From Callorhinchus milii (lineage: Eukaryota), in the NCBI RefSeq assembly GCF_018977255.1, contig NW_024704743.1, positions 8,496,001 to 8,560,000 of the forward strand: a stretch of DNA of 64,000 nt, written 5' to 3'. Numbering within the stretch: the first letter of the stretch is position 1; each line of letters starts with the position of its first letter. The notes beneath the pieces were generated by a model, which did no database searches, had not been told where the DNA came from, and saw only the letters and a list, made by a program, of their open reading frames with translations. Below are positions 4,975 to 60,053 of the stretch, one piece after another. A program made the translations under genes and the position numbers.

Positions 4975-5263
4975 ATAATACTTGCATTTGATATAGCGCT
5001 TTTCACGTCTTCTATACATCTCAAAGCGCTTCAGAATATATTGTAAAATGAATTAATTGCATACTTGTGGGGCGAAACGCGACAGCCAATTGCGCACTGT
5101 TATGGACTCAAGTGAAGTGACCAAATTATTTTTTTTTGTTGAGGGATTATTATCAGGTGTGTGGAGTAGGGAAACTTTCCCAAGGTTTCACCCTGCCGGG
5201 AATCAAACCCAGGTCTCTCACTTGCAAGGCGAGTGCTCTAACCACTGAGCTACAGGACTCCAC
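4975..5263 (-). mobile_element. tRNA(Ala-like)-headed SINE, short variant
   Basis: Reverse complement of the head GGAGTCCTGTAGCTCAGTGGTTAGAGCACTCGC..GGTTTGATTCC (pol III A/B boxes), plus an L2-like tail. Confidence 0.9.
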
Positions 5264-6230: not shown

Positions 6231-6594
6231 GGGGTCAAACACACGGTAGGCCACTGTAATAATAGGGTAATATTTGTCGACACTCCCATTAGTTTCTAAA
6301 ATCACATTGATATAGTATATTGGAATTCTTCTTAAAAACCAACCCTCCTCTTTTCAAGACGTATTCAAATCTGTGCATTCTGAATCGCATAAAGAACATT
6401 CCCATGAAGCCAATGAAGCTCAGAGTTAGTAAAAAGTCAATCAGAATGCATTTGCTCAATACATATGTGAAGGCATAAATCGCATTTAGCAAAGGTAAAT
6501 TTCATTGCGGAACTAAATGGTATTTGCACAGCCAGTCAGTAGTTTTTGTTTCAGTGATGTCAAAAATGCTATACTTTTAAGTTAACATGTTAAC

Positions 6595-7666
6595 ATGGGG
6601 TTAACTTCCACATGTATGCGGATGACACCCAACTCTACCTTTCCTCCTCTACTCTCAACTCCACGACCACCGATGTCCTGACAGCCTGCCTGTCCGACAT
6701 CGAGTCCTGGACGAGAGACAACTTTCTTCAGCTCAACGTGCGAAAAACCGAGGCCCTCCTGATTGGCTCACGTCAGCGCCTCCGCACCTCAGGCGCTGAC
6801 ACCATCAGCATCCAAGGCTGCACTCTCCACCTCTCAAAGCCAGTCAGGAACCTCGGCGTTTTGTTTGACCCTGAGCTGTCCTTTCTCCCTCACATCCGCA
6901 CCACAACTGGCACCGCCTTCCATCACCTCCGGAATATCGCCAGATTACGGCACTACCTCACCCCTCACGCTGCTGAAACCCTGGTTCACGCCTTTGTCAC
7001 CTCAAGGCTGGACTATGGGAACTCTCTCCTCGCCGGCCTTCCCGCCACCTCCCTCCACAAGCTGCAGGTCATTCAGAACTCTGCAGCTCGTGTACTGTCC
7101 CGCACCAGGCTTCGGGACCACATCACTCCTACCCTCGCTCGCCTCCACTGGCTCCCCATCCCCCAGAGGATTGATTTCAAGATCCTCATCCTCACCTACA
7201 AGGCCATTCACGGCCTTGCTCCCTCCTACCTCTCCAACCTACTATCCCCCTACCTACCTGCCCGTACCCTCCGTTCCTCTGGCTCCGGTCTGCTCCACGT
7301 CCCCCGCCCCAACCGCCCTACTATCGGTGGTCGGGCCTTCAGCCTCTCAGCCCCGAGGCTCTGGAACTCCATCCCCCAGTGCCTTCGCCTTGCTTCCTCC
7401 CTTTCCTCCTTCAAGGCCGGTCTCAAAACCTTTCTCTTTGACCGAGCCTTCAGCTCCCCTCTCGACTCTCTTCCTCCTCCTCGCTCCCTCCCTTCCCTCC
7501 CCTCACCCTGACCATTTCCCCCTCCTCTCTCCCTCCCTTCCCTCCCCTCACCCTGACCATTTCCCCCCTGCTCGGGTCATGACCCAACTGTGCAGCGCCT
7601 TGGGACGTCCTCCTGACGTGAAAGGCGCTCTATAAATGGAATCTTGTTGTTGTTGTTGTTGTTGTT
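6595..7666 (+). mobile_element. L2-clade LINE, 5'-truncated, young; intact RT C-terminal ORF 6612-7511
   Basis: ORF has YADD, SRLDY, LQVIQNSAAR, HITPTL..LHWLP and GGRAFS..APRLWNS (L2 hallmarks). 3' UTR ends in a stem-loop and a (TTG)n tail; CpGs are largely retained. Confidence 0.95.
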
Positions 7667-9268: not shown

Positions 9269-9577
9269 GTGGAGTCCTGTAGCTCAGTGGTTAGAGCACT
9301 CGCTTTGCAAGCGAGAGACCTGAGTTCAATTCCAGGCAGGGCGAAACCTTGGGCAAGTTTCCTTACTCCACATACCTAACAATAATCCCTCCCAAAAAAA
9401 AACAATCATAAATTGGTCATTTTCAATCTACGACTGTTTGTGGGACATTGCTGTGCGCAATTGGCTGCCGCATTCTCCCACAAATACAGTCAATTCACTT
9501 TACAGTGTCTTCTGTGAAGCGCTTTGGGAAATCCCCTCGACGTGAAAAGCGCTATATGAAATGCAAGGATTATTATT
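9269..9577 (+). mobile_element. tRNA(Ala-like)-headed SINE, short variant, full length
   Basis: A box TAGCTCAGTGG, anticodon arm CTCGC-TTTGCAA-GCGAG, B box GAGTTCAATTCC, tail ...GCAAGGATTATTATT. Confidence 0.92.
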
Positions 9578-23205: not shown

Positions 23206-24227
23206 TTATTGAACTCAATACCCTGGGGGAAGGGGAGCCAGTGGAACTGCGCTAGGATGGGGGTAACAGCCGATGGAACCTGTATAACACCTCGTCCGAA
23301 GAACTGCGTCTCCAACAATGGCGTGTCAACTTAAGACACTGTCACCAAGTCCTGACTTGGTGCTTGAAGTTAAAAGGGGAAGGTTCTGCCAATTGAGCCA
23401 GACAGGCGACAACAATAATATTAGTTGTAAAGCGCCTTTCATGTCAGAAGGACAACCCAAGGCGCTGGACAGTCTGTGTTTTGGACCTGAGTTCAGGGTT
23501 GGAATCGGGGAGTTGGAGGGCAGGTGGGGAGAGCAGGGTGATCGAAAGCACAGTCTTGTGATAGATCCTGAAGGAGGCAAGGGAGGAGGTGAGGCAGAGG
23601 GACTGTGGGATGGAGTTTCAGAGGGTGGAGGCAGAATGCTCGCCCGCCAATGGTGGGGCGAGCGAGGCAGGGGACATGAAGCAGGTGTGAGTCCGCTGAG
23701 CAGAGGGAGCAGGCAGGATGGTAGGTGGGTTTAGGAGGTCGCAAAGGTAGGGGAGAGCAAGGCCTTGGAGGGCTTTGAAGGTGAGGACCAGGATCTTGAA
23801 CTGCATCCTCTGTGTGATGGGAAACCAGTGGAGTTGGCAGAGGATGGGGGTGATAGGGTCACGGAGCCTGGTGCGGGAGAGGACATAGGTTGCAGAGTTC
23901 TGGATGATCTGCAGCCTATGGAGGGAGGAGTTGGGGAGGCCGATAAGCAAGAAGTTTGCATTGTCAAGCCTGAAAGTTATGAATGCATGTATGAGGGTTT
24001 CGCGGCCTGTGCTGTGAGACAGTGGCTGAGCCAGGGGATATTGCAGAGGTGGGGGAAGGCAGAGCGGGTCATGGCACGGATGTGGGATAGAAAGAACAGT
24101 TAAGGGGCAAACAAGACCTCAAGGTTCTGGACTGGCTTAGTAAGGTGGAGTGTGAAGGAGGGTGGAGGGAGGAGTTGGAGAGACCGACAAGTAAGAAGTT
24201 TGCATAGTCAAGCCTCAATGTTATGAA

Positions 24228-24444
24228 ACAAAAACAGAAGTTGCTGGGGACACTCAGCAGGTCAGGCAGCAACTATGGGTAAAGTGAGTCAACGTTTCAG
24301 ATCCACGACCCTTCGTCAGAACTGGACCCAAAACCCTGACTCACTTTCCTTTCTCCATAGATGCTGCCTGACTTGCTGAGTGTTCCCAGCGACTTCGGTT
24401 CTTGTTTCAGATTTCCAGCACCTGCAGTATTTTGCGTTTTGTTT
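24228..24444. mobile_element. Fold-back (inverted-repeat) non-autonomous retroelement, Penelope pLTR-like, copy 1
   Basis: Arms ~24228-24290 and ~24337-24408 are inverse complements. 14-bp TSD CTCAATGTTATGAA (24214-24227) / CTCGATGTTATGAA (24445-24458). Confidence 0.8.
24287..24323 (-). ncRNA. Minimal type I hammerhead ribozyme-like motif
   Basis: Minus strand AGUU CUGACGA A GGGUC GUG GAUCU GAAA CG UU GACU. It has the CUGANGA and GAAA core, a 5-bp stem II, a palindromic stem III (ACGU), a 4-bp stem I and a GUU cleavage triplet. Confidence 0.6.
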
Positions 24445-26814
24445 CTCGATGTTATGAATGTGCGTATGAGGGTTTCGGCAGCCTGCGGTGTGAGACAGTG
24501 GTGGAGCAGGGCGATGTTGCGGAGCTGGGGCAACGCCGAGCGGGTATTGGCATGGATGTGGGGACTGATGCAATTGATTGAGTGAGGGGTAACAAAATTC
24601 AAATTGTGCCGATCCATCTCTTTCCTTCACTCAAACTCTACCAATCTAGCTGCTCCCTTAAGAACACAACATAAGAAATTCTAGACGAAAAAAAGACCAA
24701 GGTCCATCTAGTTTGCCTTCCACCTTCCTATTTTAGGAAATAACCCTTCACTTAACAGGCATACTGGCTTTTAGCCTATCTGCCCCACTCTCTGGGATTC
24801 CATCTGGGGGTCCCTCAAACTCGCTGCCTCCCTCACCTCTCTCAAGTTCCATCTCAAAACCCACTTCTTTAACTGCACTCTCAGCCATCCCCTCCCCACC
24901 TTTACCTCGGGTGCCAAACCAGTATCGTTAAGCACCTTGGGACGTCCTACAGACACCAAAGGCACTATCTAAAAAAAAACGTAAATTTGTATTGTAAAAT
25001 GATCAAGGGGCAGAAAAAAATCTTTGCAAAAAATTTACATGATTGCCAACATATATTTCAAACTGTATTTCTTCAAAGTTTCACTAAAACAGAATTAAAA
25101 AATCCCAGTTCCTACAAAGTAAGCAGGATTCTTAATGTATTCAGCATTCAGCATCTACAAAGCAAGTAAACCAGATCGCCCACATCTCAAAACAAGTAAA
25201 TATCAAAGGCATCGTCCATACATCTCTAGTCAGCAAATAGCAAGGGCATCTAAAAATAACCAATCACATGCTCAAACACATTATTCCTGCATTTCTACCC
25301 TCTAATCTCAACTGCCACTATTACTCTCAGTAGGAAAAGCAATACATCCTAAATGTGTACTTCAAGGCCTCAAAAGGCCTGAGATGGTATCCAGAGGACC
25401 AATAATTGCTGTATTCATTAACGGAAGCTATAAGCTTCACAACAATAAATTATTTTCATTATATTACAAGCATTTCATTTGGCAAGAGTGGGGGAAGAGA
25501 GAAGAGAGGGGGAAAAAAAAAGAAAGATGGCTTCTTACACCACCACCATTATGTTCAACTATTTTCACTATTTCAGTTTAGTCACAGAACTTTTGAGTAT
25601 ACCAGATCTTTTTTGCCTACGACAAAAATAACCTAACCACAATAATTAGATCACAGGTTGAAGCAAGTTGTATTGAACTCTCATCCCTCTCAAGCAGGAA
25701 TGTACAAGTCAGAAGAGAATAATCAAACACACATGAAAGGTCCCAGAAAGTACTTGGGGAATTTCTGGAAAATGAGAAGAACAGATTGGCTAACAAGTCC
25801 TAAATTACAAAGAATATACCCAAAAAGGGACACACACCAGAGGCAGCAAAGTGCAGACAATGAGCATTACCAAGACTAATAGAATGGAAATTCACACTTA
25901 CACAATAGAGGCATACAAAAAACACAGACAACACTGCCACAGAATCCTTAATAAGTGAACTGCATCAGTGGAAAGCAATTTCTTAATAGATAATCTATTT
26001 CGGTTTCACAAAGACTGTTCGACAGTCCGATCTATGGGATAAAAATAATAATCCTTACATTTGGTGTAGTGCATTTCAAGTCAGAAGTTTGTCCGAAGGC
26101 ATTCCATGGGATATAATTTAAATAGTGACTGCGTGTTTTGTGGATATACTAGAATTATTTGTACATTCACACTGAAAAGTACGGTATACTTCCAGTGCAC
26201 AAGTAACTCGGCAACTGCTGGTAAAATCTGTGAAAAAAGTTACTAGCTTCCTGTGGTCACAATATAGCAGTGACCATTATAACAGGGACCCAATTTATTG
26301 AGCCAAACCACCACATTGTAACAGGATCCAACTGTATTTTTGCAAAAGTAAAATTTGCTGGGTGCAAATTGGCTGGTGCATTCATTTACGAAATACACTT
26401 TACAGTAAAATTGCATGAAAAGCTTTTACAGATGTCTGCCCGATGTGAAAAGCACAATATCAAATGCAAAATTTATTATTAAGCCTCCTCACCAATGAAC
26501 TTTAGGAAAAGATACACTTGTAACTTCTAATTCACTACTTCCAATATCACCTTTCAAAGTAGTTAAAAATGTTTCTTCAGACAAGTATCTTTAAATCTGC
26601 CAATAATCTTACACAAATGAGAGCAACAAAACAGCAATAAGCAGCAAACCACTACAAAAACATCATCAATTTTGGGTAATTTGGGAGTGCTGAAAAGAAA
26701 TGAACACGTTTTATGTTGGGTTGTTAATATAAAGTGAAAAAACTACAAACATTTTGAAAAGATTTGACTAAATCAGATTTTTCATAATATTACTAACTGC
26801 TAACATTTCAAATG

Positions 26815-27202: not shown

Positions 27203-27514
27203 GGAGTCCTGTAGCTAGTTGTTAAGAGTACTCGCCTCACAAGTGAGATACCTGGGTTTGATTCCTGGCAGGGCAAAACCTTGGCTACGTTTCACATGCT
27301 CCACATGCCTGATAAACCATCAAGAAAAAATAAATAATAAAATTAATCACTTCAATCCACAACTGCTTGTTGGACACTGCTGTGCGCAATTGGCTGCCTC
27401 GTTTTGCCCACAAATGTACAGTCAATTCACTTTACAGTATATTCTGTGAAGTGCTTTGAGATGTCTAGAAGAAGTGAAAAGCGCTATATTCAAATGCAAG
27501 GATTATTATTATTA
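27203..27514 (+). mobile_element. tRNA-headed SINE, short variant
   Basis: Head GGAGTCCTGTAGCT.. through tail GCAAGGATTATTATTATT. Confidence 0.88.
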
Positions 27515-29141
27515 GTTGTATTGGATTTTAATGGTGCTATAAAGCAGTACAATTTTTGTTTCACCTTTTCAGCATCCAAGACACGATCGGGCACATCTAC
27601 TTAATATTGAGAGCAAAGACGTAAATATCATGACTAAGTAGATTTTCAAGGCATTTTGGTGGCAAAAATGTCATGGATTCGTTGAAATGTCAAATTAATA
27701 TAGTACACAGTCGTCAAATGTCAAGTTTACCCGAGACCAAAGTTCTAGCTCAAGAATCTGCAAGATCAGGGTGCAAACACTTATCAATCCAGATGATAGA
27801 GAATAAGAACATATTTTAGAATATGTCCCAGTTGATTGCAGGTCTACTGTGGACCTGTTCTTAAGGTTGTCAGGTCGCTGCTGGCAGCACTTCCCACATA
27901 TCATGCACATATATGCTAAGTGCAGTATTCATAGCAGTTCAAGAAGGAAATGACATCAACTCAGTTTCATAGTGTGCAGGAAAGGATGTCAATGGAAACT
28001 TGATGATCTGGAAACAGGACTGGGGACTATTTTGTTCTGTGAACCCATTGTAACACGGTTGCCCTGCATTAAAGATTAGCTGAGACATTGGAGAAACATA
28101 ACTTTTTAAAAAGAGGTTCCCATTTAAAAAAATCAGGTAATCTGCCTTTCACAAGCAGTACTGTAACTGCTTTGGATGAAGTTCAAAAACCCAACAAATC
28201 TTGCCAATTTTAAATCCACAATAATATGAAAAATGTGTTGTCAGTAGCATTATAACAGAAACTGGCAACAAAACCACAATCCAATCTAGATTACAAGTAT
28301 TTTAAATGTTTGATCAGCTACTGTAAATTACATGGCAGCATTGGGTAGTTACCCACTTAACAAATGGTTTAAAAAAAAACTTTTGAACAGATTCAATTTA
28401 GCAGCTCAGAATTCTAGGCCGTCAACGTGACATCTCAGAAAAGTGGGACGCTGCATTTCTGGGTGCTTCCAATCAGTTCCTGAGTTCAGCCAAACATCAA
28501 GACTTACCCAAAAATAAGAAAATCTGCTCATTCTAGCCCAGTGCACTGCAACAGGCAATCAGTGCTGCAGGCCTGGAATAGCTCCCTTGCCTCAAACATG
28601 TGTGTATGTGCGTGTGTGGGGGGGGATGAAGAATGGAACTAGCTTTTTTTTCCCCTAAAGCCTAAAAACAGAAATTGTGGATTACAAAAAACAATAAACT
28701 ATTGCTAATCAACAGTTCCATTTGGATTTTATATCAGGCCAGTGCCAGCTCCCCTCACTCTCTTCTGCCTCCCCCTCATTAAATGCATTTCAGATTCCTG
28801 CCATTGTATTGGGAACCAACCACATTAAACATGTCAGGACTCTTCAGCCTTAAGAAATGTCTCAGGGGACTTTAATAAGATGCTAAATGGATTTAAGTAA
28901 AGCAAACCAGAACACCATTTTCAAATGTGCCAAAGCTGCGGAACAAGAGGGTATGAGCTCAGGGTTCTGAAGGGTAAATTTTTGACAAAACACCAGATAT
29001 TTTCTTTCCACAGCAGGTGCAACTGGAATGGTGACAAGAGCAAGTAACTAACTCATTTAAGAAACAGCTCGATTCTGAAATGGAAAAAAACTTAAGATTG
29101 GATGTTCCAGGAGGCGATCAAATGAGCCAAACAATATGGCA

Positions 29142-29276
29142 AAAGACAAAATACTGCAGATGCTGGAAATCTGAAATAAAAACAAAAGTCGCTGGGAACA
29201 CGCAGCATGTCAGGCAGCATCTATCTCATAGATGCTGCCTGACCTGCTGTGTATTCCCAGCGACTTCTGTTTTAAT
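29142..29276. mobile_element. Fold-back element copy 2 (centre deleted; near-perfect hairpin)
   Basis: Same arms as copy 1, joined by a 3-nt loop (CAGCATCTAT-CTC-ATAGATGCTG). 11-bp TSD ACAATATGGCA at 29131-29141 and 29277-29287. Confidence 0.8.
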
Positions 29277-30386: not shown

Positions 30387-30704
30387 TAATAATAATAATC
30401 TTTGCATTTGAATAGCACTTTTCACGTGTTCGACATCTCAAAGCGCTTCACAGAATATGCTGTAAAGTGAATTGACTGTATACTTGTGGGCGAAAAGCGG
30501 CAGCCAATTGCGCACAGCAATGTCCCACAAACAGTCGTGGATTGAAAATGACCAATTTATTATTGTTTTTTTTTGGAGGGATTATTATTAGGAGTGTGGA
30601 GTAAGGAAACTTGCCCACGGTTTCGCCCTGACCTGCCTGGAATTGAACCCAGGTCTCTCGCTTGCCAAGCGAGTGCTCTAACCACTGAGCTAACAGGACT
30701 CCAC
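30387..30704 (-). mobile_element. tRNA-headed SINE, short variant, full length
   Basis: Reverse complement of the 9269-9577 family, low divergence. Confidence 0.92.
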
Positions 30705-31020: not shown

Positions 31021-31307
31021 TTGCACTGAATATAGCACTTTTCACGTCTTCTAAACGTCTCAAAGCACTTCACAGAATATACTATAAAGTGAATTGACTG
31101 CATCTGTGGGCAAAACGTGGCAGTCAATTGCACATAGCAAACATTCATGGATTGAAGGACTAATTTCTCAATTGTTTTTTTGAAGGGATTATTTTCAGGC
31201 TTGTGGAGTAAGGAAACTTGTCCAAGGTTTCGTCCTGCTGGGAATCGAACCCAGGTCTCTCGCTCTTGCAAGGCAAATACTCTAACCACTGAGCTACAGA
31301 ACTCCAC
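31021..31307 (-). mobile_element. tRNA-headed SINE, short variant
   Basis: Reverse complement of the family consensus. Confidence 0.88.
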
Positions 31308-35166: not shown

Positions 35167-35529
35167 GTGGAGTCCTGTAGCTCAGTGGTTAGCACTTGCC
35201 TCACAAGGGAGAGACCTGGGTTTGATTCCCAGTAGGGCTAAACGTTGGGCATATTTCCATACTTCACATGCCTCTGTTTACCTAGCAGTAAGTAGGAACC
35301 TGGTTATTAGTCGATTGGCGGATCACTTTTCCAGGGATCATAATCCCTTCAAAAAAAAATTTGGTCACTCAATCCACAACTGTTTGTGGGACACTGTTGT
35401 GCGTAATTGGCTGCCACATTTCGCTTAAAAAATAGTCAATTCACTTTATAGTATATTCTGTGAAGCGCTTTTGAGATGTCTAGAAGATGTGATAAGGCGC
35501 TATATCAAATGCAATGATTATTATTATTA
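35167..35529 (+). mobile_element. tRNA-headed SINE, long variant, full length
   Basis: Head, internal GCCTCTGTTTACCTAGCAGTAAGTAGGAACCTGG segment, and tail. Confidence 0.9.
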
Positions 35530-41473: not shown

Positions 41474-41626
41474 CGATTCCTCCTCCTTCTCCATCCCCGT
41501 GGGCATCTGGGGAACCGCTCGGTTAATAGAGGCATATTCGTGCAGGTCCGGCAAGTCCTCGCAGCGGTACACGGGAAGGGGTTTCGATGCATCGAGCGCC
41601 CTTGCCCGAAACGACAGTTTGCTCAT
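41474..41626 (-). CDS. EPC1: EPC1 coding exon 1 (Enhancer of Polycomb homolog 1, NuA4/TIP60 subunit; start of the EPcA domain)
   Basis: Translates to MSKLSFRARALDASKPLPVYRCEDLPDLHEYASINRAVPQMPTGMEKEEES (51 codons). This matches the vertebrate EPC1 N-terminus; DASKPLPV and EDLPDLHEYAS are EPC1-type rather than EPC2-type. It ends in phase 0 at donor TCG|GTAGG. Confidence 0.97.
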
Positions 41627-55126: not shown

Positions 55127-55393
55127 AATAAAATCAGAAGTCACTGGGAACACTCAGCAAGTCAGGCGCCAACTATGGAGAGAGGAAAGTGGGTTAGCGT
55201 TTCAGGTCGACCTATCGTTAGAACCGGTGGATGTTGCTCGCTTTCTCCATCCCCCAGTTCTGACAAAAGGTCATCAACCTGAAACGTTAACCCACTTTCC
55301 TCTCTCCATAGATGCTGCCTGACCTGCTGAGTGTTCCCAGCAACTTCTATTTTTATCTCAGATTTCCAGGGTCTGCAGTATTTTGCCTTTTGT
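55127..55393. mobile_element. Fold-back element copy 3 with two decayed hammerhead motifs
   Basis: Same family. Motif AGTT CTGACAA A AGGTC ATC AACCT GAAACGTT AAC at 55256-55291, plus a decayed inverse copy at ~55191-55225. 14-bp TSD TTACAGTTTTGTGA / TTAGAGTTTTGCGA. Confidence 0.78.
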
Positions 55394-56457
55394 TTAGAGT
55401 TTTGCGATTGTACTTCTCATTTCAGTTTTGATCAACCGATCCCACATTTAAAGGTGACTGCCTCCAGCACAAATGATATCATTTTACAGGTACCAAAAAA
55501 AAATGACACTGTAACTAGTCTCATGTTTTGTTCACAAAAAAAATGCTTCATATAGAATGTGTGAGTATAAATGCCCCTTCTTCAAGATTAAAGAGCGCAT
55601 TTAAGGAATTTTAATTTCACTCACAAAGCAGAGAGAGAGTACTTAAATCATCACCAAAATCCTGGAGTAGCTGTCAAGCTATATCTAAGACCGAAAATAA
55701 CAGCATTCTTACTCATGCTGCAGTGGCCTGTCCATTGTATTCAATAAATTTAGTTGAAATCAGAGTATTAGAATGGGTCTCCAGAAAGCATTAGAAGTGT
55801 GATCAACAGACACACAAAGAATAGAAGCCAAAGTTCGTACACAATAAATATTCACTTTTCTAAGATTTAGATATATTTTTAAAATCATTACAACTTCAAG
55901 AATGGGCCACTGTAGTATTCATGAGTTCCATAAAAGGTAGAGGACTCATCAGATTGGAGCTCCATCCATTAACTTATTTTCACATTGCCCATCAGCTTGC
56001 ATAAAACATTTGCCAAGACTTACCAAGTAAATATCGTTCCGTGAGGCCATTGAAGCTTTGGTTAAAACTGATATCCAATATCCAATTCATGTTTACAAAA
56101 GAAGAAATTGCTATAGTTTCCTTCCCGATCGGAGATTGTGGGTTCATGTGAAAGGGAAGACCTGTAAAAATCAGAAGCTACATTTCAGCGTCATATCAGA
56201 TTAGCCAGTGAAAGAAATGCTAATTTCAGCAGGTTTAGAGAAATTCACAGCATTTTTAAACATTTGCAAATTCTGTTCAATTCTTGAATTCAGTTCTAGC
56301 TTTCAAATAAGTTTTTTGTAGATTTTTGTGTTTGTTAAATTAAGGACTATAGAAAACCATACAAAAACTAGGATTTACAAGAGAATTTAGTAGGAACTAC
56401 TTCACACAGACACAGAGGGCAGCAAGATTGTGGAATTTGCTGCCCAAACTAGTGGCT

Positions 56458-59739: not shown

Positions 59740-60053
59740 GCGGAGTCCTATAGCTCAGTGGTTAGAGCACTCGCTTTGCAAGCGAGAGACCTGGGTTTGA
59801 TTCCCGACAGAGTGAAACCATGGGCAAGTTTCCCTACTCCACACGCCTGATAATAATCCCTCAAGAAAAAAAAACTAATAATAAATTGGTCACTTCAATC
59901 CACGACTGTTTGTGGGACACTGCTATGAGCAATTGGCTGCGGCATTTCGCCCACAAATATACAGTCAATTCACTTTACAGTATACTCTGTGAAGCATTTT
60001 GAGATGTCTAGAAGACGTGAAAAGCACTATATCAAATGCAAGGATTATTATTA
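59740..60053 (+). mobile_element. tRNA-headed SINE, short variant, full length
   Basis: Near-identical to 9269-9577. Confidence 0.92.

Follow-up and report, generated by a model that had tools for sequence, protein, structure and literature searches.

The 64-kb window, that is, the whole stretch of DNA analysed, carries two exons of EPC1 on its minus strand. Coding exon 1 lies at 41474–41626 (50 of 51 residues equal to those of human EPC1, E 1e-28) and exon 2 within the approximate limits 790–950, its peptide beginning near 950; a search with the EPL1 family did not place exon 2. The intervening intron 1 spans ~40.5 kb. A minimal type I hammerhead motif at 24287–24323, also on the minus strand, is flanked by these two exons and so lies on the sense strand of intron 1, as the initial annotation had it. 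The motif sits in one of three insertions of a hammerhead-bearing family within the window. The other two are at 55130–55395 (subfamily B, one hammerhead per arm, both core-mutated, with an 11-bp TSD with one mismatch) and at 29140–29273 (a short head-to-head insertion of the same Penelope-like element (PLE) family that stops before the hammerhead, with a 13-bp TSD). Rfam tRNA matches at 5188–5259, 9273–9344, 27205–27276, 30629–30699, 31230–31303, 35171–35240 and 59744–59815 mark the tRNA-like heads of a repeat that is abundant and probably a tRNA-derived SINE. A 305-aa open frame at 6594–7511, with a weak RVT_1 match, represents the C-terminal portion of a LINE reverse transcriptase and is related to the LINE fragment that hosts the hammerhead insertion.

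Re-reading of the letters confirmed the sequence of the motif. The first G of the 5' strand of stem I (G0) is at 24322, the core CUGACGA (C3–A9) at 24313–24319 carries no mutation, stem II (5 bp, two of them G-U) occupies 24299–24311, and GAAA, the zero-loop palindromic CG and the UU cleavage doublet lie at 24291–24298, with the predicted cut at 24291/24290. Stem I is 4 bp long, the palindromic 15.2–16.2 pair is CG with no loop 3, and CUGANGA, GAAA and UH are all present. An unpaired A stands between positions 9 and 10.1 (offset 10) both here and in 75 of 75 sampled arms. This layout agrees with the minimal motif as given in the accessible part of PMC4209133. The minus-strand reading, the core, the stems, the zero-loop CG and the cut after 24291 proposed in the initial annotation thus all stand. 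Its description of the motif as intact holds for the core and not for stem II, whose G-U pairs result from two C-to-T changes relative to the family; one is at the closing 10.1–11.1 pair, highly conserved in minimal hammerheads according to the same portion of that paper. A minimal-hammerhead descriptor gives one match in the window, where 100 order-1 Markov simulations average 0.0, and, the two motifs at 55130–55395 being core-mutated, the claim that no other motif of the window has an intact core is borne out. The Rfam hammerhead covariance models gave no match at E ≤ 10 to either the window copy or an unmutated family copy. An Rfam match to MIR869 over 24234–24399 was rejected, its score being far under the gathering score and reflecting the hairpin of the insertion.

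The insertion measures 217 bp in all (24228–24444) and joins two pLTR copies of a Penelope-like element, both 5'-truncated and set head to head. The sense arm (24228–24323, minus strand) covers offsets of about 0 to 103, from the 5'-end hot spot described below to the short class of 3' ends. The inverted arm (24323–24444, plus strand), which is the first arm on the pre-mRNA, covers offsets 17 to 138 and includes a one-sided tail of ~35 bp (24410–24444, plus strand) that continues into the ORF region in longer copies. A 14-bp TSD flanks the insertion on the plus strand at 24214–24227 and, with one mismatch, at 24445–24458. The insertion interrupts an older LINE fragment on the minus strand (24163–24562), and the uninterrupted version of its site is visible in a neighbouring LINE fragment at 23919–24086. 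An empty allele was considered but is not supported: joints across the element carry other letters and resemble paralogous LINE copies. A 303-nt contig of run X10, in which an empty allele had been suspected, runs on from 24469 (24469–24697) into LINE sequence unlike the local flank. The arms are 87% and 80% complementary, and the whole insertion folds as one long hairpin (−126 kcal/mol, z −12.6) in which the inverted arm is complementary to the 3' strand of stem II, the GAAA, the cut site and stem I of the hammerhead.

Copies of the family number in the thousands in this 0.99-Gb vertebrate genome. A first look gave 3709 candidates (40 scored), and there are 171 exact copies of the unmutated 35-nt motif and 2114 of the 30-mer downstream of it. 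Copies that were each less than full length allowed the element unit to be pieced together. On the 3' side, loci L094, L098 and L099 show, collinearly, reverse transcriptase (RT), a CX4CX2C linker, GIY-YIG with CCHH residues and the hammerhead-bearing repeat; on the 5' side, L194 and L202 show pLTR, tail and N-terminal coding region, also collinear, with the likely ATG of the element ORF 167 nt behind G0. The location of the motif in the pLTR of these longer copies supports its assignment to the minimal type I hammerheads of Penelope-like elements. In Pfam, three of four fragments match (GIY-YIG, E 0.0012; RVT_1, E 0.0005 and 0.006), all below the curated cut-offs; the fourth, an RT-side fragment, has no Pfam match, and in the PDB the RT fragment found no match with E below 0.2. 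A CX2-5CxxC motif is present in the RT-EN linker of L094, L096 and L101, and the open frame of L096 has the CCHH motif with two cysteines inside the GIY-YIG core. The accessible text of 10.1101/2021.04.23.441226 describes this linker motif as absent in Penelope/Poseidon and the CCHH with GIY-YIG cysteines as present in EN+ PLEs. By the features set out in the available part of Craig et al. (PMC8557442), the family would be an EN+ Penelope-like element of Neptune/Nematis type. The unmutated family motif has the CUGANGA/GAAA core, and both stems show compensatory change between the two subfamilies: from A to B, G-C became A-U at 10.1–11.1 and, in the first pair of stem I, G-U became A-U, one event each. 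The 10.1–11.1 pair is thus G-C in subfamily A (171 exact copies), G-U in the window copy and A-U in subfamily B. At L194 (1195–1215), L195 and L210, a pyrimidine tract plus AG, acceptor-like, ends two bases before the likely element ATG; a 5' UTR intron spanning the hammerhead is possible from these sequences, though no good donor was seen at the three loci.

Weak self-cleavage in the pre-mRNA had been envisaged for the window motif at the outset, the inverted upstream arm having gone unnoticed. In the pre-mRNA context, the hammerhead fold is predicted to cost +16 kcal/mol when stem I is just complete and +27 kcal/mol for the whole insertion, with predicted probabilities of 0.00 for stems I and II, co-transcriptional prefixes included. 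The predicted cost is +4 to +7 kcal/mol in all seven copies without a masking arm and +18 to +38 kcal/mol in the three other masked copies (3/3), and the isolated 37-mer is predicted still to form stem II (P about 0.8). Masking is frequent: in head-to-head pairs, the partner is antisense over the cut site for 27 of 38 hammerhead-bearing arms. Because the antisense arm emerges first during transcription, with a predicted pairing across core and cut site, cleavage of EPC1 pre-mRNA is unlikely. Weak self-cleavage is therefore not supported, given the predicted cover of GAAA, cut site and stem I. The folding predictions in the pre-mRNA context also argue against cleavage as a dimer, and the descriptor search found no second intact motif for a dimer in the 64-kb window. 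Published minimal motifs show no cleavage as monomers and weak cleavage as dimers, as far as the accessible part of PMC4209133 goes, and the available text on an Anolis motif (PMC11167929) has it cleaving only with the element's protein. On these predicted folds, we consider it very probable that the motif is a passenger, a PLE pLTR hammerhead in a head-to-head insertion, masked by the upstream arm and likely not cutting EPC1 pre-mRNA.

The complete core, the sense orientation and the many unmutated family copies that could act as partners do speak for a different outcome, in which the motif would pair in trans with other pLTR transcripts and, as such a dimer, cleave a small fraction of EPC1 pre-mRNA, with help from the element protein or from a helicase unwinding the hairpin; the accessible part of PMC11167929 reports cleavage assisted by protein for the Anolis element. 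We regard this as unlikely. The antisense arm is made first and its displacement is predicted to require 16–27 kcal/mol, the closing pair is G-U, and every long copy read carries stops or frameshifts, none pointing to a young, intact element. One contig of run X1, whose RNA origin is a guess, spans the cut site, with 48 letters to one side of it and 34 to the other, and argues weakly in the same direction.

The passenger reading is accompanied by an account of how the insertion may have arisen. The 3' ends of the arms fall into two classes, at about offsets 93–105 and 129–141, and 36 of 40 head-to-head pairs combine one short with one long 3' end. In the available text on PAc, a Poseidon element of Anolis carolinensis, there are two internal RT start sites, with cutting and extension of both strands (PMC11167929), and the layout of inverted pLTRs plus tail is known for EN+ PLEs from the accessible parts of PMC3846280 and, for the tail, also PMC8557442. 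By analogy, the window copy fits these start sites and this layout as one short/long pair. The element's enzyme would nick both strands 14 bp apart, and two cDNAs would be primed at the two internal start sites, at offsets ~100 and ~138, a twin-priming step borrowed from the in vitro study of a Poseidon-clade element. One cDNA would reach the 5' end of the RNA, that is, the first base of the hammerhead, while the other would halt at offset 17, and the two would then be joined head to head. As the window copy spans the cut site, its RNA template would have been uncleaved. A short Pol III RNA ending at T runs was considered as the source of the two classes of ends and rejected, for long copies with many internal T runs share the same ends.

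A nearly identical layout of ~220 bp is found at 29 other loci, as would be seen if the insertion were a non-autonomous element in its own right (MITE-like or retrozyme-like) copied as a ready-made palindrome. These loci were, however, selected by their likeness to the window copy, and in the sample anchored on the downstream 30-mer the junction varies between copies and 58 of 138 arms lie outside close head-to-head pairs. Long copies share the same two 3' ends and there are no tandem units; a ready-made palindrome is very improbable.

The 30-mer sample comprised 95 of the first 100 of the 2114 matches, which lie within the first 31 Mb of contig C1. Left out were 5 places already in the biased sets and one duplicate locus, giving the 138 arms. 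In this sample, which is biased to young copies, the core is intact in 32 of the 75 arms that cover it, so that the escape from core mutation remarked upon in the window copy is common. In subfamily A, CpG sites are mutated at 29 of 122 core positions and 96 of 366 non-core positions, and non-CpG sites at 21 of 549 (3.8%) and 104 of 1891 (5.5%), respectively. As judged from these substitutions, the core decays neutrally, with at most a slight deficit of changes at its non-CpG sites. The arms of the window copy differ by 5.8% and 6.8% from the subfamily majority, where the median of 87 arms is 6.6%; by this measure the copy is not special, being of about median family age with ordinary decay, and the initial suggestion of a younger insertion is not upheld. 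For an intronic hammerhead that had been co-opted, one would expect the orthologous site to be conserved and the core to be under purifying selection. Recruitment of the motif for EPC1 regulation, as a ribozyme or as a double-stranded RNA hairpin, has in its favour that EPC1 is a conserved chromatin gene, that the motif sits in its first intron and that the hairpin would reach ~95 bp, but the median age, the ordinary decay and the fact that this one 64-kb window holds three insertions of the family leave it barely credible. For EPC1, the motif most likely does not matter.

Motifs of this kind are already known, and the 5'-end signature of the family is the only part worth following. Within the sample, 120 arms cover the anchor and 73 reach the 5' edge of the hammerhead; 47 of the 73 end at −2 to +3, 26 of them exactly at G0, counts in which arms from the same insertion do not count as independent and the BLAST ends are approximate. 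The background of arm 5' ends is 0.8% per base, and only 1 of 108 falls at the cut site (offsets 31–33). Upstream of the hot spot, the sequence is unrelated between copies. For subfamily A (1235 matches) and subfamily B (249 matches), hand counts of the first 100 in each, obtained with a search pattern that excluded T at the first place, gave 64 and 76, respectively, breaking off within 13 nt upstream; 60 of the 64 and 62 of the 76 keep G0. These lists are independent of the sample. A script check of 30 + 30 loci found 19 (A) and 23 (B) truncated at the hot spot. Copies that read through carry TTAAAAG, which is TATA-like, 30 nt upstream, and CCAGTT, which is Inr-like. A promoter scan, a bacterial one and not apt here, found nothing. 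The accumulation of ends at the first base of the hammerhead, 30 nt behind the TATA-like box, rather than at the cut site suggests that the element RNA starts there and is integrated uncleaved.

We can extend this to a fuller reading, plausible from the insertion ends if slightly short of probable, in which the hot spot is the transcription start, an uncleaved mRNA is the template for strong-stop-like cDNAs of its first 100 or 140 nt, which make up most genomic copies, and the ribozyme clips only a 32-nt capped leader as an off switch. If this is true, the ribozyme would remove RNA from the transposition cycle and not make the templates for integration. A cap-templated extra G was looked for at the hot spot, and G was found at −1 in only 21 of 122 truncated copies with G0 (hand count). 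The base before the AG at the hot spot is C in 33, G in 14, A in 13 and T in only 1 of 61 truncated copies (hand count). At L047, L049 and L089, the first base of the hammerhead is joined directly to further-upstream element sequence (RT region or pLTR), like a template jump from the hot spot. It is possible that the template is instead spliced, the motif being preceded by a CAG acceptor as in D. virilis. The hot-spot sequence does resemble a splice acceptor, as it does there in the accessible parts of PMC4209133 and PMC2377424, but the 50 arms read whose starts fall between −10 and +8 have no upstream exon in common, and the base kept is G0 and not +1. The hot spot may also come from an RT stop or a cut at the DNA level.

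The insertion ends of the family provide a genomic read-out for PLEs: they agree with two internal RT start sites, one per strand, indicate that the ribozyme had not cut the integrated templates, and place a candidate RNA 5' end to the base. In the PLE and hammerhead literature searched, we found no description of such a 5' hot spot in the accessible portions of the papers, although Fig. S2 of PMC11167929 may bear on the point. The function of the hammerhead in PLEs is described as still open in the available part of PMC8557442.

The comparisons that follow hold for the accessible portions of the sources. With the min-HHR of metazoan PLEs (Cervera and De la Pena 2014, PMC4209133), the family shares the type I fold, the CUGANGA/GAAA core, the unpaired base between 9 and 10.1, the zero-loop palindromic 15.2–16.2, the short helix I, the location in the pLTR and an occurrence as thousands of dispersed single copies with opposite-strand pairs. 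Helix II is 5 bp here and 7–8 bp in the Schistosoma motifs, and 10.1–11.1, usually G-C there, is G-U in the window copy and A-U in subfamily B; cartilaginous fish go unnamed in those portions of the paper. Insertions of EN+ PLEs of Pen2a_Av type (PMC3846280, PMC8557442) have the same head-to-head inverted pLTRs, one-end tail of 30–40 bp, TSD and TATA-/Inr-like motifs, but the window copy has no ORF between the arms and a TSD of 14 bp rather than 8–10 bp. In PAc (Frangieh et al. 2024, PMC11167929), too, the hammerhead sits close to the 5' end of the ORF unit, the tail is defined by two internal RT start sites, both strands undergo cutting and extension, and uncleaved RNA is the substrate. It differs in that the linker here is of Neptune/Nematis type, the likely ATG lies past the tail and not at stem II, and the accessible text on PAc makes no mention of 5' ends falling sharply on the first hammerhead base. 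Finally, the non-LTR retrozymes (10.64898/2026.07.22.740005) are, like the window copy, non-coding, with a type I hammerhead and an origin from a PLE pLTR; they are direct tandem repeats with at least two motifs, whereas here there is a single inverted insertion with one.
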